In this document: piece after piece, positions 1-41,210 of the stretch
How positions within the stretch are numbered: position 1 is the stretch's first letter
Layout of the letters: each line of letters starts with the position of its first letter
Virus record (IMG/VR): IMGVR_UViG_3300032257_000011
Direction: 5' to 3' (one strand)
DNA length: 64,000 bases
DNA from: a virus
Program-made: the position numbers and the translations under genes
The notes under the pieces: model-generated
The model's database searches: none
What the model saw: only the letters and a program-made list of their open reading frames with translations
Told to the model about the DNA's origin: nothing

Positions 1-46
1 CTATGTAGACAGAATATCTAAACCACACTCAAAAAGGAGATTTATC

Positions 47-7101: not shown

Positions 7102-7935
7102 ATGACAGAATTGATGCCAGAAGATGAAGACTTGTTTTCTATAGAATGTATTATGATTCTACTACACTTGAACCCAGGTCTAAATATTGAATATTCAAAG
7201 CCTCTAGTCATCATATTGGAAGGAAAATTATTTGACCTTTCTCCTGTCTATAGGCTATCTAATTTATCCAGTTTTTCTAAAGAACTAGTTGAGAATTATT
7301 TCGCTCATCTATTAGAAGCAGAAGATGCTCTACAGGATGAGGCTCTTTATGATTTTGATTATGTTCGGGAAAAAATATTCCCCCGAATACAAAGCAGAAA
7401 AATAATCAGAGAGTTGAACACAAATGGAATTGCTTACACTGATTGGGTAAACGATTGCATCATCACCTATGTAATTGATTTTCCATCTATGACAATATCT
7501 GTCAATAGAGATCAGGTCAATGGATGGAAAACAAACATGGATGAACTTCATGATATTGCGCTCGACAATCTAAGAGACACTATGGAGAGTATTGACTTTG
7601 AATACTTCGAACTAAAAAATGGACTAGAGGCAATAATACTAAAGACCGAAGATGGATATGATGCTTCAAGAATAATTACACCAGAACTATTTCAAGAAGT
7701 ATCTGCTCGATTTGGCGGAGACTTCTATGTCGGCATTCCAGCAAGAGATATGCTCTTTGCCATTCCCGCAAATCATATGAATAAAAAACTCTTGAATCGA
7801 GTGAAGAGAGGCATGATGAAAGAATATAATCACCTGCCATATCCTATCACTTCAAAACTTTTCTATGTTACACTCGACGGGGTTGCTGCCGGTTTTATTG
7901 ACAAACCACTAGCAAGTGATAACGATAACGAGTAA
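7102..7935 (+). CDS. hypothetical protein
   Basis: ORF track; SD AAAGGG. Confidence 0.55.
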   Translation: MTELMPEDEDLFSIECIMILLHLNPGLNIEYSKPLVIILEGKLFDLSPVYRLSNLSSFSKELVENYFAHLLEAEDALQDEALYDFDYVREKIFPRIQSRKIIRELNTNGIAYTDWVNDCIITYVIDFPSMTISVNRDQVNGWKTNMDELHDIALDNLRDTMESIDFEYFELKNGLEAIILKTEDGYDASRIITPELFQEVSARFGGDFYVGIPARDMLFAIPANHMNKKLLNRVKRGMMKEYNHLPYPITSKLFYVTLDGVAAGFIDKPLASDNDNE

Positions 7936-29581: not shown

Positions 29582-29753
29582 ATGACCATGAACACTCAGT
29601 TCCAAACAGATAGACTATTACTTGCGTAAAGGGAAGGCCCCTACTAACGCTTGCTATGTCTCTGTAGTCAAGACCTCATAACAACTCAATGAATATACTT
29701 GCCGTACCGCTGCTCTAAAGAGAAACGTACATCATGGGCAAGTTTTTCTTATT

Positions 29754-29837
29754 GGCCCTATGGTGAAATTGGTAGACACGCTAGGTTCAAATTCTAGTGG
29801 CTGAAAGGTCGTCCCGGTTCGATTCCGGGTAGGGTTA
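29754..29837 (+). tRNA. tRNA-Leu (anticodon CAA), type II
   Basis: hand-folded cloverleaf; long variable arm; GGTTCGATTCC T-loop; no CCA encoded. Confidence 0.7.
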
Positions 29838-30140
29838 TTCACTTGTAAGAGATTCTATCATGTGATAGTATGACGATACAAATAGAGCTGATGCTCAGAA
29901 GGAATGAAATGAATAGTAAGATGACGAATGTAGCTCGGAAACACAGGATGAGCCGCAAGAAGATGCAGGCGCAGGTTCGAGCAGAGAAAGCAAAATCAAA
30001 GAAGTAGATGAAAAAACCGAGTAAGGAAGAATTGAAAGCAGCTATACAGAGACACGTTGAGAAGTCAGCGGAGGCTGTGGCAAAGATCCCTCTTGAGAAG
30101 AGGACGATTTTGAGTAAGTTCGACTTGGAGAAAAATTGAT

Positions 30141-30326
30141 ATGGTTATAAAAATAGGTAACAAATTTGTGTCTTGGGAGAAATCAGGAAGAGGTATTTAT
30201 ACCGTTTATACTTATTCTTTGCAGAAAGAAAGACCTGAAGAAAGCACAGCGACAGAGATAGCAAGAAGAAGTAGACAAATGAGTTTTATTGGATTTGCAA
30301 GATTCAAAGAAATGGAATTTTGTTAA
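30141..30326 (+). CDS. hypothetical small protein
   Basis: ORF track only. Confidence 0.3.
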   Translation: MVIKIGNKFVSWEKSGRGIYTVYTYSLQKERPEESTATEIARRSRQMSFIGFARFKEMEFC

Positions 30327-30332
30327 ACACAC

Positions 30333-30414
30333 GGCCCCGTGGCGGAATTGGTAGACGCGCAAGATTTAGGTTCTTGTTCCTTACGGAGTGCAGGTTCGAT
30401 GCCTGTCGGGGTTA
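30333..30414 (+). tRNA. tRNA-Leu (anticodon TAG), type II
   Basis: hand-folded; long variable arm. Confidence 0.7.
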
Positions 30415-30418
30415 TTTA

Positions 30419-30502
30419 GCTTATGTGGCGGAATTGGTAGACGCGTATCCTTGAGGTGGATATTCTAGAAATAGAGTGGAGGTTCGATTCCTCTCATGAG
30501 CA
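30419..30502 (+). tRNA. tRNA-Leu (anticodon GAG), type II
   Basis: hand-folded; long variable arm. Confidence 0.65.
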
Positions 30503-30511
30503 TTATAAATC

Positions 30512-30584
30512 CCTCTTGTAGCCCAATGGCAGAGGCGTTTGTCTTAGGAACAAAATGTTGGTGGTTCGACTCCACTCAAGAGGA
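30512..30584 (+). tRNA. tRNA, anticodon TAG, short variable arm (identity uncertain)
   Basis: 73 nt; C1-G72; 3-bp D stem; anticodon loop CTTAGGA; T-loop GGTTCGACTCC. Confidence 0.5.
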
Positions 30585-30588
30585 TTTA

Positions 30589-30664
30589 GGCCCTGTAGCC
30601 CAACTTGGTAGGAGGCGACAGACTTAAAATTTGTACAGTGTGGGTTCGAATCCCTCCAGGGTCA
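30589..30664 (+). tRNA. tRNA, anticodon TAA, short variable arm, enlarged D-arm (identity uncertain)
   Basis: 76 nt; anticodon loop CTTAAAA; T-loop GGGTTCGAATCCC; one T-stem mismatch. Confidence 0.45.
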
Positions 30665-32480: not shown

Positions 32481-32487
32481 TTGGTAT

Positions 32488-32573
32488 GGGCTTGTGGCGG
32501 AATTGGTAGACGCAACGGACTTAAAATCCGTCGAGGGTAAATCCTCATGAGGGTTCGAGTCCCTCCAGGCCTA
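32488..32573 (+). tRNA. tRNA-Leu (anticodon TAA), type II
   Basis: hand-folded; long variable arm. Confidence 0.65.
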
Positions 32574-32690
32574 TTTGAAAAGAAATCACCTGAGAATCAA
32601 TCAGGTGAACACAAAATCTGATATACTCATATCTGAACAGCCCATCAAAGGGCAAGAAACTCAATTTCATCCCTAACGGAGAAACAAAGA

Positions 32691-33347
32691 ATGTCAGACA
32701 TGAATATTGCCAACAAACCAGGCGCACAGTCAATTACTGATGCACAAGCAAGCGAACTCGATTACGTTATTGCCATTGATACAAGCGGTTCTATGGCTGG
32801 TCGAGACCCACAGCGTACTGACCTCACCCTTTTCAAGCACGCTCAGGAATGGACAACCGGAATGTCACGTTGGGCTGAAACTGTAGATGATGACGGCATT
32901 ACCGTTATTGCCTTTGGTGGAAACTCTATCGCAATGACAGACAACGTTACAGCAGATAGCGTTGAGACCGTATTCAATTCGCAGCCTCCACGAGGAAGCA
33001 CCCCAACTACTGAAGCTGTCCAGAAGATCATTGACATGAAACTTGCTGGAACGTTTACTAAGGATGTTGTTGCCTTCATCATAACTGATGGTAAGCCAAA
33101 CAACTCCGAGGGTGTTGCTCAAGCAATTGCTGCATGGACTAATCACCCAAGCGCAACTGAGCAAGGTATTTCATTCTCATTCATTCAGATTGGTAATGAT
33201 ACAGCCGCTCGTAATTTCCTTACAATGCTTGATGATGACCTCGAATCCAAGTATGGTGCGAAGTTCGACTGTGTAGACACTCGTACTCTTGCTGAAACAG
33301 AAAACATGTCATACGGCCAACTCGTATGGGGCGCACAGAACGACTAA
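32691..33347 (+). CDS. vWA-domain protein (TerY-like)
   Basis: MIDAS motif VIAIDTSGSM plus ITDGKPN; sits immediately upstream of TerD and TerB homologues. Confidence 0.7.
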   Translation: MSDMNIANKPGAQSITDAQASELDYVIAIDTSGSMAGRDPQRTDLTLFKHAQEWTTGMSRWAETVDDDGITVIAFGGNSIAMTDNVTADSVETVFNSQPPRGSTPTTEAVQKIIDMKLAGTFTKDVVAFIITDGKPNNSEGVAQAIAAWTNHPSATEQGISFSFIQIGNDTAARNFLTMLDDDLESKYGAKFDCVDTRTLAETENMSYGQLVWGAQND

Positions 33348-33465
33348 ATCTCCGAGCAGACAGGCACACCGCTTGTCTGTTTTTTCTCATCTATCAATGT
33401 AGATAGATGGTACTTAACCGCAAGCATTGCTTGCAAATTGTCCTCTTAGGACAAAGGAAACTCAA

Positions 33466-34059
33466 ATGTTGACAATTACTCCAAAGGGCGGGACCGTTGG
33501 TCTCACCATCGCAGCCAAGGCAACTCCTGAAGCATCAACCGCTCCAAATCAGTTCAACTTCGGTGCTGGTTGGGATACCACTGGTGGCGAGGCAGACCTT
33601 GACCTTTGCCTCTTGCAGCATCGTGGCCGTGGCGCTGCTGCTACTGATGGCGATCTCATCTACTACGCTAACCTGACCTCTGCTGGCATCACCCACACCG
33701 GCGATAACCAGACTGGCGAAGGCGACGGAGATGATGAGAATGTTCGCATGAACCTTGCTGATCTTCCTGCTGACGTTACTGCTGTTTCAATCGGTATCGT
33801 TGCATACTCAGCTACTGACTTCGGTAGCGTTGACAACATCCACCTTGAAGGTCGTGCTGGCGATGCTGAGAACGGTTCAGGTCTCTTCGGAGCTGATTTC
33901 TCAGAAACTGGCAACAACACATGCCTCGTAGCTGCACGCCTTGAGCGTCAGGATGATGGCGAGTGGACTGTGGTCAATACTTCAGAGTTCTCGAACCCAG
34001 GCAATGGCGGAGCTGCTATCCAGGGCTTCGTAACTGCTGCATCAGCGCTTTACAGCTAA
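33466..34059 (+). CDS. terD: TerD-family stress protein
   Basis: GWD…DLDL…HTGDNQTGEGDGDDE…DLPADV match TerD Ca-binding signature. Confidence 0.8.
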   Translation: MLTITPKGGTVGLTIAAKATPEASTAPNQFNFGAGWDTTGGEADLDLCLLQHRGRGAAATDGDLIYYANLTSAGITHTGDNQTGEGDGDDENVRMNLADLPADVTAVSIGIVAYSATDFGSVDNIHLEGRAGDAENGSGLFGADFSETGNNTCLVAARLERQDDGEWTVVNTSEFSNPGNGGAAIQGFVTAASALYS

Positions 34060-34163
34060 TCCTCTGTTGGGATTTGGTTTACAACAGTTAGAGGGTAGAA
34101 ATATCCTCTGCTGTTTTCGGAAAACAATAACAGTGCAAGTTGCACAGAACTTAGGAGAAGCAA

Positions 34164-34625
34164 ATGGCTTTTACAAAATTTATGAACATCATGAACAACG
34201 TGGCAGGAGACATTACTGCGAGTGCGAAGAAATTCTCTAACTCAGGAACTCGTGACCGAGCCGCTGCTGTAGCTGCTATCGTTGCTTATGTTCCTGACCA
34301 AGACGCTGACAAGGACGAAATCAGCAAGGGAGTTAAGGCTATTCACAAGATGACTGATGGAGCTTTCAAGATTGATGAAATGCTTGCAGCCGTAAACAGT
34401 GCAGTTGAGACACTTGAGTTTGATGTAGACATGGGATACACGGAATTGATGAATACTGTCCGCAAGGCAGGCGCTGACGAACGACGTTTGCTTGTTAGCG
34501 TTGGCATCGCAGTCGGTAAGTCATCTGGCGAACCGGGCGAAGATCCATTCTCTCCTGAAGAAAAAGATTGCGTTCGTCGAATGATTACTGACCTCGGTAT
34601 GAATGCTTCAGATTTTGGTCTGTAA
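34164..34625 (+). CDS. terB: TerB-like protein
   Basis: C-terminus VGIAVGKSSGE…EEKDCVRRMITDLGMNASDFGL parallels TerB. Confidence 0.65.
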   Translation: MAFTKFMNIMNNVAGDITASAKKFSNSGTRDRAAAVAAIVAYVPDQDADKDEISKGVKAIHKMTDGAFKIDEMLAAVNSAVETLEFDVDMGYTELMNTVRKAGADERRLLVSVGIAVGKSSGEPGEDPFSPEEKDCVRRMITDLGMNASDFGL

Positions 34626-34650
34626 AGAATAAGTCAGACCATTTGTTTCC

Positions 34651-34688
34651 ATAGGGCCGGGTGTACCCTTATGCCCGGTCCTATTTTT
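34651..34688 (+). terminator. terminator-like hairpin + T-run
   Basis: ccggg…cccgg stem then tatttttc. Confidence 0.45.
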
Positions 34689-34711
34689 CAATCAGCTCAA
34701 AGGAATAACTC

Positions 34712-35833
34712 ATGCAATGGACTCACGATTTAGCCACAACCATGTCAACGTGGCATTGGTCACTTTCTCTCCTTCTCACGATTTTGATGACGGTCGTAAT
34801 TAGCCGTGTGATTGCTTGGGCCTGCGACCACTTCGAACCTGCTGCTGGACATCTTGGCCGTAATTGGCCAGCCGGAATCCGTGGAGCAACAATTAATGCT
34901 GTTGGTTCTTCGATGCCTGAGTTGTGGACGACTGTGGGTCTTCTCTTCTTTGTGGGCGTAGGCACTACGACTGGAGTGGCTCTCCTTGGGGCAGGTATCA
35001 GCGTTACAGCGGGGTCTGCTGTTTTCAATTCGGTACTCATTCCTGCTGCTGTAATCTTCGCCGTCACAGCTCCTTTTGTTTTGCGAATCCTGACGTTCGG
35101 GCTTGTCTCAAAAATGGCAAAACAGGCTGATTCGTTCGTAATTGACAAAAGAAGCGTGGCTCGTGACCTCGTATTCATGCTTATTGCTGAAGTATCGCTC
35201 ATCTACTTCCTTCACAACGGGGTCTTCCAGCTCTGGATGTGCTTGTCCTTACTTGGTCTGTACGCCTTTTACGTCCTATTCATGTGGCAAGCTGTACGCT
35301 CTCATGAAGGAGAGGAAACGGAAGCTGAAGAGGGTTGGACGAACAAGCGGGCGCTTTGGACACTTTGTTGGACCACGTTGGCTCTCGTTGTCGCTTGTTA
35401 CTGTCTTGGCGAAATTATCGTAATTTCTGCTGTGGCCCTTGGTATTCACCCCATAATTTCTGCTGTCTTCTTTGGAGCTGCTGCATCGAGCGTTCCTGAC
35501 GTAATCCTGAGCGTAAAGGATGCACGAGCTGGAAATTACGAGGATGCGATTGCAAACGCTGTTGGAAGCAATACATTTGACATCTGTGTTGCTCTGGCTG
35601 GCCCAATGGCAATCTACATCCTGATGTATGGAGAGATTGTTCTTCCTGACCATGCGGCTGTGGAGATCCTCAGGATTGGTCTCCTTCTAACGACGGTACT
35701 TGTCGTTGGTCTTCTCCTTCTAACCAAGCAGGTTCGGTCATGGATCGCCTGGGTCCTGATGGCGGCGTACTTGGTCTGGATCTTCTTTGTTCTTGATACT
35801 GAGTTTGGTCTATTGTTCTTCTCAGGCACCTAG
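34712..35833 (+). CDS. CaCA-family cation/Ca2+ exchanger-like membrane protein
   Basis: about 10 TM helices; alpha-repeat-like GSSMPEL and ASSVPDV. Confidence 0.5.
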   Translation: MQWTHDLATTMSTWHWSLSLLLTILMTVVISRVIAWACDHFEPAAGHLGRNWPAGIRGATINAVGSSMPELWTTVGLLFFVGVGTTTGVALLGAGISVTAGSAVFNSVLIPAAVIFAVTAPFVLRILTFGLVSKMAKQADSFVIDKRSVARDLVFMLIAEVSLIYFLHNGVFQLWMCLSLLGLYAFYVLFMWQAVRSHEGEETEAEEGWTNKRALWTLCWTTLALVVACYCLGEIIVISAVALGIHPIISAVFFGAAASSVPDVILSVKDARAGNYEDAIANAVGSNTFDICVALAGPMAIYILMYGEIVLPDHAAVEILRIGLLLTTVLVVGLLLLTKQVRSWIAWVLMAAYLVWIFFVLDTEFGLLFFSGT

Positions 35834-36826: not shown

Positions 36827-36899
36827 GGGCGATTAACTCAATGGCTAGAGTGCTTGCTTTACACGCAAGAAGTTCCCGGTTCGAGTCCGGGATTGCCTA
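36827..36899 (+). tRNA. tRNA-Val (anticodon TAC)
   Basis: hand-folded; anticodon loop TTTACAC. Confidence 0.7.
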
Positions 36900-36910
36900 C
36901 TTCACATTTC

Positions 36911-36985
36911 CCGATTGTAGCTCAGTTGGTTTAGAGCGTTCGCCTGATAAGCGAGAGGCCGGAAGTTCAAGTCTTCCCAATCGGA
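36911..36985 (+). tRNA. tRNA-Ile (anticodon GAT)
   Basis: hand-folded; perfect 7-bp acceptor stem. Confidence 0.7.
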
Positions 36986-37075
36986 TTTAAAACCTGGAGT
37001 TTAGCTATACTCCCATATCAAAATAGCACTCGGAAGTTTTGACCCGTTTGATAGATCGGGGAGGTCTTCTAGCAC

Positions 37076-37149
37076 ATTCCTGTAGCTCAGTTGGCTAGAG
37101 CGCTTTCCTGACACGAAAGAGGCCAGAGGTTCGAGTCCTCTTAGGAATA
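37076..37149 (+). tRNA. tRNA-Val (anticodon GAC)
   Basis: hand-folded; A1-U72. Confidence 0.6.
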
Positions 37150-37265
37150 TTCACATACCTTTCTTCGGAAAAGTAGAGATAAGCCAAGCGAGTGAAGCAG
37201 AGATGCGGTATACTTGGTTTCGACGATTCTTTGACAAGTAAATAGATAATATACTTCATCTTATT

Positions 37266-37338
37266 GGGGCTTTAGCTCAGCGGTTAGAGCATTCCACTCA
37301 TAATGGACAGGTCCTGAGTTCGAATCTCAGAAGCCCTA
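37266..37338 (+). tRNA. tRNA-Met (anticodon CAT; elongator or Ile2-type)
   Basis: hand-folded; anticodon loop CTCATAA. Confidence 0.6.
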
Positions 37339-37348
37339 CTTTCAAGAT

Positions 37349-37423
37349 GGTGAGCGTAGTTCAATTGGTTAGAGCATCTGGTTGTGATCCAGAATGTTGC
37401 GGGTTCGAGCCCCGTCGCCCACC
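37349..37423 (+). tRNA. tRNA-His (anticodon GTG) with G-1 and C73
   Basis: hand-folded; extra 5' G pairing with discriminator C is the His hallmark. Confidence 0.7.
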
Positions 37424-37467
37424 CTTTTAGTTGTAAGTCTTTATTCTTCCTCAAGTTGAATTCAAAT

Positions 37468-37575
37468 TGAAAAACTTTGAGAAAAATGAGTCTTACGACT
37501 TGACATTTTCCTTTTATCTGTTATACTTAGAGACCAACCCAAACGGGAAGGTTTGACAAGTAAATAAAGTAATAA
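37468..37575 (+). promoter_or_regulatory. repeat unit 1 with sigma70 consensus promoter TTGACA-N16-TATACT (37500-37527)
   Basis: about 108-bp unit repeated in tandem. Confidence 0.65.
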
Positions 37576-37602
37576 AAGGAAGTCCCTTGCTCTCTGCGGT
37601 TT

Positions 37603-37710
37603 GAAAAAACTTTGAGAAAAAAGAGACATTCCCCTTGACATCTGAATTTTAGATGTTATACTTAGAGACCGACCCACTTGGGACGGCATGACAAGTAAAT
37701 AAAGTAATAA
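37603..37710 (+). promoter_or_regulatory. repeat unit 2 with TTGACA-N16-TATACT (37635-37662)
   Basis: near-identical copy of unit 1, ending in GACAAGTAAATAAAGTAATAA. Confidence 0.65.
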
Positions 37711-37889
37711 GATGATGATTCCTAAAATTCACGTCGGAGAAATCCTGTTCGAGAAAAAAGGGAATCACCTTGGGACCGAAACCCTCTTACAGTATTTTCG
37801 ATTTTGTTTGGCAAAGCGTTGTGAAAGTTGGAGCTGAACCAAACTGAAAGGTCGAAGATATATTCAACAAAGGGAAGTAAGTCCCGTTT

Positions 37890-38102
37890 GGGACATTAGC
37901 TCAGAGAAGATGAGTTTCCTCGTGGAACTCTAAGGAGCGTTTCTCTCACTCATGGGTTGTTTGAAAACCCAGGCACTTGAATCAAACGAGCGAATCTCCG
38001 TGGTAGCAATACCCGAGACAAGCGAGTAATTTTCGAGACCTGAGAATTCGAGCAGCCCATGAGGGAGAGAAAAGGTCGGCAGTTCGAGTCTGTCATGTCC
38101 CA
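37890..38102 (+). ncRNA. tRNA-like element with about 140-nt structured insertion
   Basis: perfect acceptor GGGACAT/ATGTCCC; D-arm; T-arm GGCAGTTCGAGTCTGTC; variable loop AGGTC; 17-bp helix (37940-56 with 38056-72) closing a 99-nt insert. Confidence 0.5.
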
Positions 38103-38107
38103 CTTTC

Positions 38108-38307
38108 GCCGAGGTAGCTCAACGGCCCGTAAGGGGATTTAGCAACCAAGACCTGGTTCACACCAGAAATTGGGAACTAAATTAGAGCGTTCCTAGTCAT
38201 CGGATAATATGAATGTCTTTTTGTATTTATGAAATACAGACAGCGCTAAACTATTTGTATTATCCGATGATTAGGAAAGGTAGTAGGTTCGACTCCTACT
38301 CTCGGCT
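38108..38307 (+). ncRNA. second tRNA-like element with insertions in D-loop and anticodon-loop positions
   Basis: acceptor GCCGAGG/TCTCGGC; T-arm GTAGGTTCGACTCCTAC; anticodon stem TTCCT/AGGAA extended to about 20 bp (38190-38209 with 38258-38277). Confidence 0.5.
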
Positions 38308-39262
38308 TTTCCAAGTTGCTAGTATCCTTTTGCTCGGAAGCAAAAAAACTAGTGGAGTCCCGTCTTGGGCGACCAAAATAGACTATGGTTTGATGATTTC
38401 CACACGATGAAACATCAGCTAAACAGCTCAGGTTCAGAAGAATAATATTTGCTTGCAAGCATTATTTGGAGAATTAAAAAACAGACTATGGTGGTCTGAA
38501 AGAGTGGACTTTGAATCCAGTTTACGTTGACACACGACTTCGATAATAATCACAGACATGTACAGGATGAAAAGCCTGACATGTCTTTAGAATGGTCAAA
38601 GCTGCGAGGCCCGAAACCATTTGACATATGCAGATTTCCAACATGCGGGTTAAAGCGCAAAGGAAAAAAGCTTTTAGATTGCAAATCTGAACTGTTAGGA
38701 ATGGCAGGAAAGAAATGCTTGAGAAGGTATGTTAGGTCTTGACCTGATATCTCGTCTTCCAAGGAACCGAAAGGGAAACTTGGCTAAAGCAGAAGAACTT
38801 GAAACAGTTCCAAGTATGTAGCCGCAACCGAATATCAAATGGCGACATTTGGTAAAACGAGCGACAACTGTTCGAGGAGATCATCCTCTTCGGACGGTTT
38901 CCCAATACCTTGTTTAGCCTCTTAAGGGAAAGCGACAAGGCTCTGGCTGACTCCAGCTAAACTAAAAGGAGTAGGCAGTTCATGCCTTTGGAAGCAGGAC
39001 GCCAAACCTGTCAAGGACTTGTAATCCTTACTGAGTGTTTGGATGTCACGTAGCTGAGACGAAAATGGACTAGGGCGACCTGGGTGAGAAACCTGGGCCG
39101 ACCCTTTAGGAAGCGCGAAAGCAATTCCGAGCTATTGGATGACCCGTGATTGAACATTAGGGATTCCAAAGGTACTCTTCTTTTGCTAACGGTTAAATCA
39201 ATACCGAACAAGCAAACTCGAAGAGTAACTACTTAGAGAACTAAACAGCTCTTTGTAGTTTT
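38308..39262 (+). ncRNA. about 950-nt non-coding region; candidate large structured ncRNA (GOLLD/ROOL-class hypothesis)
   Basis: no ORF above 71 aa on either strand; downstream of tandem strong promoters; flanked by tRNAs; internal repeat AGACTATGG x2; several GNRA/UUCG-like hairpins. Confidence 0.3.
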
Positions 39263-39337
39263 CGCGGAGTAGAGCAGTCCGGTCAGCTCGTTTGGCTCAT
39301 AACCAAGAGGTCGAGGGTTCGAATCCTTCCTCCGCTA
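39263..39337 (+). tRNA. tRNA (anticodon CAT) with C1:U72 mismatch
   Basis: hand-folded; anticodon loop CTCATAA; T-loop GGGTTCGAATCC. Confidence 0.55.
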
Positions 39338-39500
39338 TTTATGCTTAGACCCCCGCAAGGGGATAGACGACGGTCGAAAGTAGGGCAACCTGCATCTAAG
39401 CACCTTGCCCCCTCCGAGATCCCCTTAGATCGAGAACTTGTTCTCTCTTTGGGGATTTCTTTATTTAACAGGCACTATCTCCAATTTCCATTTTGAACTC

Positions 39501-39513
39501 ATTCACATGCGAT
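39501..39513 (+). promoter_or_regulatory. ATTCACATGCGAT motif (early variant of TTCACATGC class)
   Basis: same 13-mer at 25452, 26978, 27676 and 40649. Confidence 0.5.
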
Positions 39514-39565
39514 ACTTTACCCGCATGATTGGATGTCAGACGTTTCAAAATAACCCTGTTCAATA

Positions 39566-40123
39566 ATGGAGAACAAACAAATGGCCAGAAAAGCAAAATT
39601 CACACGAACCACCACACGCTCAGCTCTTCGTCCAGTAGATGACACAAAACGAAGCGCTTCAGCAAAGAACTCAACTGAAGCTCAGCCCGTCGCTGGCAAT
39701 GCAGGATCAATCCCTGCCTTCATTGGGGAATTCTTCACGAAGGTTGCCAAACGGTTCAATGCCACGAGCGGCTACGGCCTTCAGCACATCAACTCAAATG
39801 GAGCAGCACATCCTGATGCTGTCATGACCAAGAGCAATGCGGCACTCACGAAGCTTGCATCTCAGGCCATCGAGGTACTCTGTCAACGAGCAGCATTGAG
39901 TGGCCAAGATGGGGCTGTCGAGGCGCTTGGCCCTCAAGGGGACCCAGCCCAGGCTAAGAAATTCATCGCAGACATCAGCCGATTTGCGAATAGTCGAGTC
40001 AAAGCTATCCAAGCAGACCAGAGTCAGGCATTTCTTGACAACGTGGCCGAGGAACTAGGTATTGATGCCTCAGAACTTGTTCCAGCGCCAGCCAAAAAGA
40101 CCAAGAAAAAGGCAAAGGCATAA
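39566..40123 (+). CDS. hypothetical protein with Lys-rich C-terminal tail (possible DNA/RNA binder)
   Basis: ORF track; C-terminus KKTKKKAKA. Confidence 0.5.
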   Translation: MENKQMARKAKFTRTTTRSALRPVDDTKRSASAKNSTEAQPVAGNAGSIPAFIGEFFTKVAKRFNATSGYGLQHINSNGAAHPDAVMTKSNAALTKLASQAIEVLCQRAALSGQDGAVEALGPQGDPAQAKKFIADISRFANSRVKAIQADQSQAFLDNVAEELGIDASELVPAPAKKTKKKAKA

Positions 40124-40724: not shown

Positions 40725-41210
40725 ATGTCAGACGAACAATCAGTTGAAACCACTGTCGCTCAGCCACTCACCACCGTCGCAGGTTTGCAGGCTTTTGTAG
40801 CAGACCTTTTCAATTCAGAACCCTCAGACCTTCCTGCTGGCGCTCGTGGCTATACCATCAAGGGTGGTTTCCGAGCAGTATCTACTCTTCGCAACACTCC
40901 TCTCAATACTCTTGTTGGTATGGGAGCATGTATCAACGATGCCATCGCTGGTCATATTGTTGAAGGAACCGAAGGCGCTCAAGATGGAATGCAGCTCGTA
41001 ATCAATCATGCTCAGAACGCTGTTACTGCTCAGTCCAATCAGGCGCAGTTCGATAGTTTCTACAGCATGGCTCAGCATCTCGGTTATGCAGATGACATCG
41101 GAGAGAATCCTTCGATTGAAGACATGACTGCTGTTGTGGACACTTTCCTTGTTGCTCAGCCGAAGCAGCAGAATTCTTGGGCGGAGCATCTCGCTGCTCA
41201 AGGGGCATAA
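40725..41210 (+). CDS. hypothetical protein
   Basis: GGAGAAAAAAC SD then ATG. Confidence 0.55.
   Translation: MSDEQSVETTVAQPLTTVAGLQAFVADLFNSEPSDLPAGARGYTIKGGFRAVSTLRNTPLNTLVGMGACINDAIAGHIVEGTEGAQDGMQLVINHAQNAVTAQSNQAQFDSFYSMAQHLGYADDIGENPSIEDMTAVVDTFLVAQPKQQNSWAEHLAAQGA

Follow-up and report, generated by a model that had tools for sequence, protein, structure and literature searches.

The 64,000-nucleotide (nt) stretch of virus DNA analysed here (IMG/VR virus record IMGVR_UViG_3300032257_000011, hereafter the window) appears to be a section of a very large phage genome, with its genes on the + strand and two transfer RNA (tRNA) islands. Downstream of the island at 36827-37424 lies a gene-free stretch (37425-39565) that holds, in order, a tandem duplication carrying two sigma70-type promoters, a leader, two tRNA-like RNAs (A and B), the RNA modules S1, U, Y and W, a tRNA-Met gene, a trailer (Z) and a terminator-like stem (Table 1). 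Its central interval, 38308-39262, is a real non-coding RNA region, assembled as a mosaic of modules behind promoters, whose conserved component, the 312-nt domain U, has a covarying fold of + strand polarity. We are highly confident that this locus reveals a conserved family of structured non-coding RNA absent from Rfam 15. With little more than even confidence, we lean towards a wider reading, in which this would be a new class of large structured phage RNA, co-transcribed with tRNAs and cut out by tRNA-processing enzymes.

Table 1. Features of the RNA locus, with positions in the window
Feature	Position	Strand	Basis or remark
Tandem 135-bp duplication (81% identical) carrying two sigma70-type promoters	37470-37715	+	
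Transcribed leader	37716-37889	+	about 75% identical to L006, within block 37605-38309 / L006 6110-6836
tRNA-like RNA A	37890-38103	+	ARAGORN, introns allowed; 132-nt insert
tRNA-like RNA B	38108-38307	+	ARAGORN, introns allowed, relaxed threshold; 114-nt insert
Module S1, AT-rich, several hairpins, ends in 12-bp hairpin then UUU	38308-38588	+	lineage-specific
Domain U, conserved core, 312 nt	38589-38900	+	alignments, RNAalifold, pair counts, nhmmer
U 5' hairpin	38590-38622	+	GCGA cap; GCGA or GCAA across copies
U long-range helix CAUAUGC/GCAUGUG	38625-38631 with 38814-38820	+	encloses four to five hairpins
U junction hairpin CCAAGGAACC-GAAA-GGGAAACUUGG	38759-38783	+	inside long-range helix
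U terminal hairpin, 14 bp in window (13-14 across copies), then U	38866-38899	+	
Module Y	38901-39107	+	conserved in three lineages (window, L006, L005)
Module W	39108-39261	+	first ~30 nt conserved with L006; last hairpin and UUUU directly before tRNA-Met
tRNA-Met(CAT)	39262-39338	+	59.6 bits, Rfam tRNA; CCA not encoded
Trailer Z: AGACCCCC-GCAA-GGGG...GGUCGAAAG..GGGCAACC	39339-39417	+	sequence conservation
Terminator-like stem GAUCCCC/GGGGAUU then UCUUUAUUU	39418-39468	+	read from sequence

The open reading frames (ORFs) overlapping 38308-39262 are short, the longest being of 65-71 amino acids (aa), and the interval ends where tRNA-Met(CAT) begins, at 39262; on both points an earlier note on this DNA, which had seen no ORF above 71 aa and a tRNA(CAT) at the end of the interval, was right. 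The gene-free stretch is wider than that note described: from the end of tRNA-His (37424) to the gene at 39566 the longest ORFs do not exceed 75 aa, and the longest stop-to-stop frame has 88 codons. Nothing was found in favour of a degraded or recoded protein gene, and we give this explanation a practically negligible probability. Reading through TAG, TGA or TAA singly across 37425-39565 yielded no convincing frame, the 65-75-aa ORFs of the stretch had no matches in Pfam or PHROGs, the substitutions are compensatory in helices and not codon-periodic, and gene callers applied to the equivalent stretch of homologous loci (numbered here with the prefix L) called nothing in L006 and L022 and an HNH gene alone in L005. 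A pseudogene, which the earlier note had considered, was rejected on the Pfam and PHROGs searches, and so were small ORFs. That note had taken the interval for one RNA of about 950 nt; non-coding and structured it is, whereas the single RNA gives way to a mosaic of S1, U, Y and W in which only U is universal.

Domain U was found in every related lineage reached (the window and L003, L006, L005, L008, L014, L022 and L024), with one copy per locus in the window, L006, L008, L014, L022 and L024, two in tandem in L005, and two in L003 and L001. In homology searches by nhmmer, profiles of U gave expectation values (E) of 1e-46 to 1e-89 across the related loci (window 38585-38903, E=7e-82). Fold statistics were drawn from nine distinct copies with a mean column identity of about 66%, whose RNAalifold consensus comprises 75 pairs in about 16 helices. 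Compensatory double changes occur in 43 of the 75, against 6-16 when the 3' partners are slid by 1-3 columns; paired cells amount to 92.7%, against 27-45% in the slid controls and 79.0 ± 0.9% after column shuffling, with none of 500 shuffles reaching the observed value; and the covariation score is 0.49, against 0.07-0.12 in controls. An alignment of seven sequences gives the same covariation picture, and the minimum free energy (MFE) z-score of U, folded without its first 9 nt, is -3.2. The highly structured RNA that had been surmised from the window is therefore real as far as U is concerned. Since G.U cells (62) exceed A.C cells (23), it is the + strand RNA that folds and is selected.

Invariant flanks, UUAG on the 5' side and GGUUU on the 3' side, border the fold, and the copy in the window belongs to the U family as delimited by the nhmmer profile and the 16-helix fold between these flanks. 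Its junction has an invariant C(A/G)AGGAA(G/C)C-GAAA-G..A.ACU(U/C)G and a hairpin with the loop UUGAAAC, and in the window GAACUUGAAACAGUUC is among the enclosed hairpins; beyond the junction stands a further hairpin capped by GCGA, and U has three GNRA loops altogether. The letters CCTCTTCGGACGG (38885), previously taken for a hairpin with a UUCG-like loop, are actually the 3' strand of the terminal 14-bp helix. Comparison of L008 with L024, about 91% identical overall, shows substitutions clustering in two U helices with pairing preserved: GAAGC-GAAA-GCAAA in the former has become GAACC-GAAA-GGGAA in the latter, and the terminal hairpin is wholly rewritten. The U of L022 carries helices of the other paralogue type, so that copies recombine and the covariation counts are not independent events.

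Very few of 5.8 billion proteins are related to the 185-aa and 161-aa proteins that flank the locus, and the contigs that encode these relatives are syntenic, with TerD, TerB, a Na/Ca exchanger, a tRNA island and a gene-free stretch. Of these loci, L001-L004 differ hardly at all from the window, while L006 and L005 (the latter on a 120-kb contig) show 81% and 68% protein identity, respectively. A degenerate DNA pattern derived from the region found L008 in IMG/VR (a 488-kb contig, whose flanking protein is listed in 105 assembly-collection index blocks, with TARA among the sources) and L014 in metagenomes, and a protein profile added L022 and L024. Flanking-protein searches and an exact DNA motif gave no matches in IMG/VR; among the 50,697 deposited phages of INPHARED, blastn matched tRNA-Met only, and tblastn with a helicase-like protein reached no close phage. 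The degenerate pattern had three matches in 185,579 bacterial and archaeal species (one genome each), all of them chance matches inside ftsH or other coding sequence, and L013, a match from the metagenome scan, was also rejected as due to chance. Literature searches turned up no account of the RNA. On present evidence, its distribution is limited to a single small group of huge, marine and saline phages, recovered from environmental metagenomes, some of them marine.

Known RNA families do not account for the locus. All 4227 families of Rfam 15 were compared by cmscan with the whole window at gathering scores, and with 37300-39600 at E<=10 with relaxed filters; both comparisons gave tRNA alone, apart from noise that fell well short of the gathering scores, and in the homologous loci L003, L005, L006, L008 and L014 no non-tRNA family was found at E<=1. 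Because only tRNAs score in Rfam 15, neither GOLLD nor ROOL is supported, and the same holds for membership of HEARO, raiA, RNase P, tmRNA or the group I/II introns, the other families for which the earlier note had proposed a check. Models for OLE and permuted tmRNA had no matches in the window or its homologues, and ARAGORN found no tmRNA in the window. A group I intron was considered and rejected: the 5' U and 3' G at the borders of U are trivial, no model matches, and the helix order is unlike P3-P9.

GOLLD, a large phage-encoded non-coding RNA, sits beside tRNA islands and has a conserved core, variable parts and many GNRA-capped helices (PMC12286853); ROOL is likewise encoded by phages or prophages, often near tRNA islands, and is highly structured with no known protein partner (PMC12286853). 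The setting that the earlier note had likened to these RNAs, in a phage and adjoining tRNA genes, is indeed present, though it is not specific to GOLLD. A member of either family too diverged for the models would fit this shared context (a phage tRNA island with tRNA-Met beside or inside the RNA), as well as the pairing of a variable with a conserved part and the many GNRA loops (PMC12286853). Yet both models miss the window and its five homologues, and the GOLLD model (RF02032, gathering score 150 bits) does recognise a true member, scoring 165.3 bits on Caulobacter phage phiCbK, in which GOLLD sits amid tRNA-Met genes and contains a tRNA-Gly. The helix order of U and its motifs GACAUAUGC, CGAAAG, UUGAAACAG and GGUUU also lack counterparts in the GOLLD consensus, and we regard such distant membership as highly improbable. 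The alternative that the earlier note had kept in reserve, a new class, fits best.

The remaining modules vary among lineages. S1 (MFE z-score -1.8) is present only in the window and the near-identical contig L002; in L006, tRNA-like B abuts U directly. An internal direct repeat reported earlier does exist (AAAATAGACTATGGT at 38375-38389 and AAAACAGACTATGGT at 38478-38492); it is 15 nt, hence short, and sits in S1, the one segment with no homologue elsewhere. Module Y has 41 pairs, 13 of them with double changes, a count from three lineages only. Its first hairpin has the stem CUCAC/GUGAG in L005 and L006 and ACUCC/GGAGU in the window, with four covarying pairs and an invariant 13-nt loop, GCUAAACUAAAAG (general form (G/A)GCUAAACUAA(A/G)AG; window 38950-38962); a second, AGGCA-GUUCA-UGCCU, is followed by a variable middle, and the terminal hairpin has 13 bp and a 7-nt loop, UGAGAAA, before UUU. 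Module W opens with the conserved hairpin GGAAGCG-CGAAAG-CAAUUCC, the GNRA-capped element (GCGCGAAAGC, 39113) that had been picked out correctly from the window by itself, and continues with less conserved hairpins. The MFE z-score of Y and W together is -2.9, and, by covariation and MFE z-scores, structure goes beyond chance in U, Y and the 5' end of W. Outside U, a hairpin similar to the GAAA-capped one of that domain (GGAAGCG..CGAAAGCAA) turns up again at window 39109-39130, L006 7379-7400 and L008 8606-8630; it belongs to module W or, in the L008-type RNA, to the 3' domain. A long-range pairing of 38324-38339 with 39125-39140 was treated as chance, as it clashes with a locally formed, conserved hairpin and finds no support in comparisons.

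Even close relatives differ in their modules, which are swapped, duplicated or absent from one to another. The slot 38901-39104, which holds Y (204 nt) in the window, holds a second U copy (337 nt) in L001 (143-479) and L003 (269-605), alleles of the window phage with flanks 99.6% identical to it; at its ends, this second copy matches the U of L006, a more distant relative, with 89-95% identity. That one slot holds either Y or an L006-like U indicates exchange of RNA cassettes by recombination. Such exchange between near-identical genomes would also be expected if the modules were relics or cargo of mobile elements, intron-like or homing-endonuclease-associated insertions in tRNA genes whose structure served mobility or splicing. 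A 125-nt module between direct repeats, present in L008 and L022 and absent from L014 and L024, the mosaic U copies, the resemblance of A and B to tRNAs with large inserts, and, in the L005 locus, an HNH endonuclease gene accompanied by a duplicated 3' end of a tRNA all suit this explanation. The L005 gene (8067-8586; 119 aa, PHROG 2255, E=1e-27) directly follows tRNA-Met and is itself followed by the duplicated 3' end (GTCACAGGTTCAAATCCTGTCCCCGCTA), so that the pair looks like a mobile insertion into a tRNA gene. Against mobility stand the unmatched group I/II intron models, the position of U outside any tRNA frame, the restriction of the HNH gene to one lineage, and a spread unlike that of a mobile element: U occupies one locus per stretch examined, in all lineages, and the pattern found it in a single IMG/VR contig and in none of the 185,579 species genomes. 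We consider mobile origins very unlikely to explain the structure of the modules.

Both tRNA-like structures that the earlier note had placed upstream of the interval are recovered by ARAGORN when introns are allowed; they have acceptor, D and T arms, and neither is called by default ARAGORN or by Rfam. RNA A has the acceptor GGGACAU/AUGUCCC, a D arm, the T arm GGCAG-UUCGAGU-CUGUC and an extra arm of about 130 nt, at whose base pairing is kept via double changes among the orthologues (L006 6422-6615, L005 7925-8063), as read directly from the sequences. The 'anticodon' calls are inconsistent across orthologues, with Gly, Phe and Trp for A, and Thr, Val or Leu also called; A is therefore a tRNA-shaped scaffold rather than a shown decoder. 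RNA B has the acceptor GCCGAGG/UCUCGGC, the D stem GCUC/GAGC, a D loop with a 55-nt insertion containing ACCAGAAAUUGGGA, and the T arm GUAGG-UUCGACU-CCUAC, and its anticodon arm is replaced by a 20-bp helix (38190-38277); its orthologues lie at L006 6621-6836 and L008 5333-5455 (51 bits with the Rfam tRNA model). The latter, a tRNA with an anticodon-loop insertion of about 50 nt, adjoins a 71-nt tRNA with anticodon UCA (L008 5259-5329), called 'SeC' by ARAGORN, which may be an opal suppressor; the two are the apparent counterparts of B and A. The motif ACCAGAAAU(U)GG is found a single time in each RNA locus, in differing settings (window 38162-38173, L006 6675, L008 7793, L024 2981), namely the D-loop insertion of B in the window and L006, and the loop of a hairpin just 5' of U in L008-type loci, where L014 and L022 have variants; it is absent from the L005 locus.

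Phage tRNAs are known to counter anticodon nucleases. The tRNA-shaped RNAs and U could serve as decoys or replacements against host defences that target tRNAs, a functional version of our preferred reading. The retention of acceptor, D and T arms in A and B, their long helices in place of anticodon regions not conserved as anticodons, and the large tRNA sets that the phage carries would accord with it. Against it, U does not have the shape of a tRNA, and neither defence nor anti-defence genes were identified nearby; we rate the decoy role as having a small probability.

Two tandem consensus sigma70 promoters had been claimed upstream, and the sites at 37500-37527 and 37635-37662 bear this out: both read TTGACA-16-TATACT with an upstream TG and 11 of 12 matches, and a short hairpin, GAGACC(A/G)ACCC-NNNN-GGGA(A/C)GG, comes after each of them. 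A single equivalent promoter precedes the RNA locus in L006 (TTGACA-16-TATACT) and L008 (TTGACG-17-TATACT). The site in L005 is weaker (TTGCCT-17-TATACT, 9/12) and within shuffle expectation; with it counted, four lineages have a sigma70-type promoter ahead of the locus. The protein genes have a different, phage-specific upstream motif, TTCACATGCG(A/G)T, present in 20 copies (at most 1 mismatch) against 0.53 expected, 18 of the 20 on the + strand. These copies span 21980-58731 (e.g., 25453, 26979, 27678, 39502 and 40650), and those checked fall within short gaps, some 60-75 nt ahead of start codons (39502 before the gene at 39566, 40650 before that at 40725); L005 and L006 have the motif too. 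It probably serves as a promoter or regulatory site peculiar to the phage, different from the sigma70-type promoters that drive the RNA operon, and its use by the protein genes places that operon under separate control.

At the other end, the terminator-like stem is the likely 3' end of the operon; a simple scan did not list it because its loop exceeds 8 nt, and it has counterparts in L006 (AAAUCCCC...GGGGAUUU and U8) and L005 (GCCCUCG...CGGGGGC and U5). Trailer Z resembles L005 9710-9765, L006 ~7675-7710 and the 125-nt insert of L008 and L022, and a consensus structure for it was not supported. L006 has an extra tRNA downstream of tRNA-Met (7765-7836; 49 bits, Rfam), missed by ARAGORN and absent from the window. 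From these borders we infer a transcription unit larger than 38308-39262, from about 37530 to about 39468, that takes in the two tRNA-like RNAs, tRNA-Met and the conserved trailer.

The region from 37.5 to 39.47 kb would thus be a transcription unit of the tRNA-operon type, probably read by host RNA polymerase, and would encode true tRNAs together with a previously uncatalogued family of structured RNAs, in which U would be the universal component, Y, W, Z and S1 interchangeable accessory modules, and A and B two tRNA-shaped RNAs with hypertrophied arms. Across all lineages, modules generally close at their boundaries with a helix and then UUU(U), in most cases with AG after it, and the 3' trailers of the tRNA-His gene and of both tRNA-Met genes begin with a U-run. 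This likeness of module ends to tRNA trailers suggests that the precursor is cut there by host tRNA-processing nucleases; RNase P, RNase Z or RNase E would be candidates for a processing akin to tRNA punctuation, which would release stable RNAs acting in trans. That U is processed from a tRNA-type precursor to act in trans strikes us as an even proposition.

The same hairpins and U-runs could be read in another manner, with the structured segments as precursor spacers that guide tRNA processing, folding or termination in cis and are then degraded, with no function in trans. Besides the hairpin and U-run that close each module, the tRNA-operon layout of the locus in the window, L005 and L006 and the interchangeable, poorly conserved accessory modules are in keeping with such spacers. 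A 312-nt fold of about 16 helices, with three GNRA loops and more than 40 compensatory pairs, nevertheless exceeds what a spacer needs, and U is duplicated in L005 and L003. Moreover, in the L008-type loci (L008, L014, L022 and L024) tRNA lies neither inside nor beside the RNA, which sits between different genes with its own promoter and its own terminator; this position apart from tRNAs and before a different gene argues against a cis-regulatory leader as well as against mere tRNA spacers. We think it quite unlikely that the segments are spacers alone.

Several points weigh against the co-transcribed, processed RNA class that we favour. Transcription, RNA ends, stability, processing and action in trans are all features that we infer from the DNA, and the helix and UUU ends could be weak intrinsic terminators or meaningless. 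The nine U copies come from one phage group and are related, some of them paralogous or mosaic, so their covariation counts are not independent; the long-range helix of U varies one-sidedly only, which is consistent with pairing and leaves it unproven; and S1, about 30% of the interval 38308-39262, and most of W are without comparative support. Comparison of 38 window ORFs with Pfam found no protein partner or RNA-related enzyme, and functional likeness to GOLLD or ROOL is suggested by context alone.

As to function, U may likeliest be a structural RNA of the GOLLD or ROOL type, tied to tRNA or translation during infection, by analogy with those families; any one specific function is at best improbable. 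The loop CUAAACU of module Y is complementary to the invariant inter-module junction GGUUUAG (for example, at 38586-38590 and 39105-39109), forming 7 pairs, one of them G.U, and this could be a tertiary or guide contact, or chance. It hints at ribozyme or guide action at the junction, between GGUUU and AG. An unlikely but more far-reaching possibility is that U, the modules and the two tRNA mimics together make up a new RNA machine of huge phages, be it a self-assembling RNA-only particle like those of ROOL and GOLLD, whose hallmark is a homo-oligomeric nanocage, but of unrelated fold, or a ribozyme or guide acting at that junction.

Elsewhere, the window has six tRNA-Leu genes (29753-30664 and 32487-32574; anticodons CAA, UAG twice, GAG and UAA twice), an unusual focus on one amino acid that is syntenic in L005, L008 and L014. 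Next to the tRNA islands, a set of vWA (TerF-like), TerD, TerB and Na/Ca-exchanger genes at 32691-35833 is shared with L005 and L006, where it is conserved, and an SPFH/Band-7 protein gene lies at 47-1819. The GC content, about 0.35-0.40 over the first 19 kb, rises in a step to about 0.44-0.49 beyond, and several further stretches without an ORF of at least 120 aa are found at 17.2-19.5, 45.2-46.8 and 60.0-61.8 kb.

Large, intricately folded RNAs of unknown function are rare, the main examples being OLE, GOLLD, ROOL and raiA, and recent cryogenic electron microscopy has revealed unexpected assemblies, made of RNA only, for several of them. Another, unrelated fold in phage tRNA operons suggests that this niche repeatedly evolves big structured RNAs. 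As a compact RNA of 312 nt well backed by covariation, U is a target for solving a structure and for testing function in huge phages, a group with an almost unexplored biology, and module swapping between near-identical genomes and tRNA-shaped RNAs with hypertrophied arms are unusual in themselves.

Among known systems, the tRNA cluster of phage T4 includes the stable RNAs C and D (species 1 and 2), of about 120-140 nt, freed by the tRNA-processing machinery. The window likewise encodes predicted non-tRNA RNAs inside a phage tRNA cluster, whereas their sequences are unrelated to the T4 RNAs and the 312-nt U is far more elaborate in structure. YrlA and tmRNA carry a tRNA-like module within a larger RNA, and A and B recall them in that they keep acceptor, D and T arms while long helices replace the anticodon region. 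In contrast to YrlA, they end at the acceptor stem and not at a Ro-binding stem, and no Ro/Rsr gene was seen; the YrlA model did not match A or B, its only match (25 bits; gathering score 69) falling on ordinary tRNAs in L006. ROOL, of about 580 nt, differs in its own pseudoknotted architecture, and with U unmatched at E<=10, relatedness is unsupported. GOLLD (RF02032) comes close in organisation, sharing with the window locus the tRNA-island niche, tRNAs within or adjoining the RNA, and a conserved core with variable parts; it differs in that the U core has about 312 nt against more than 400 for the GOLLD 3' domain, in helix order and motifs, and in the capacity of U to be tandemly duplicated and swapped as a cassette.

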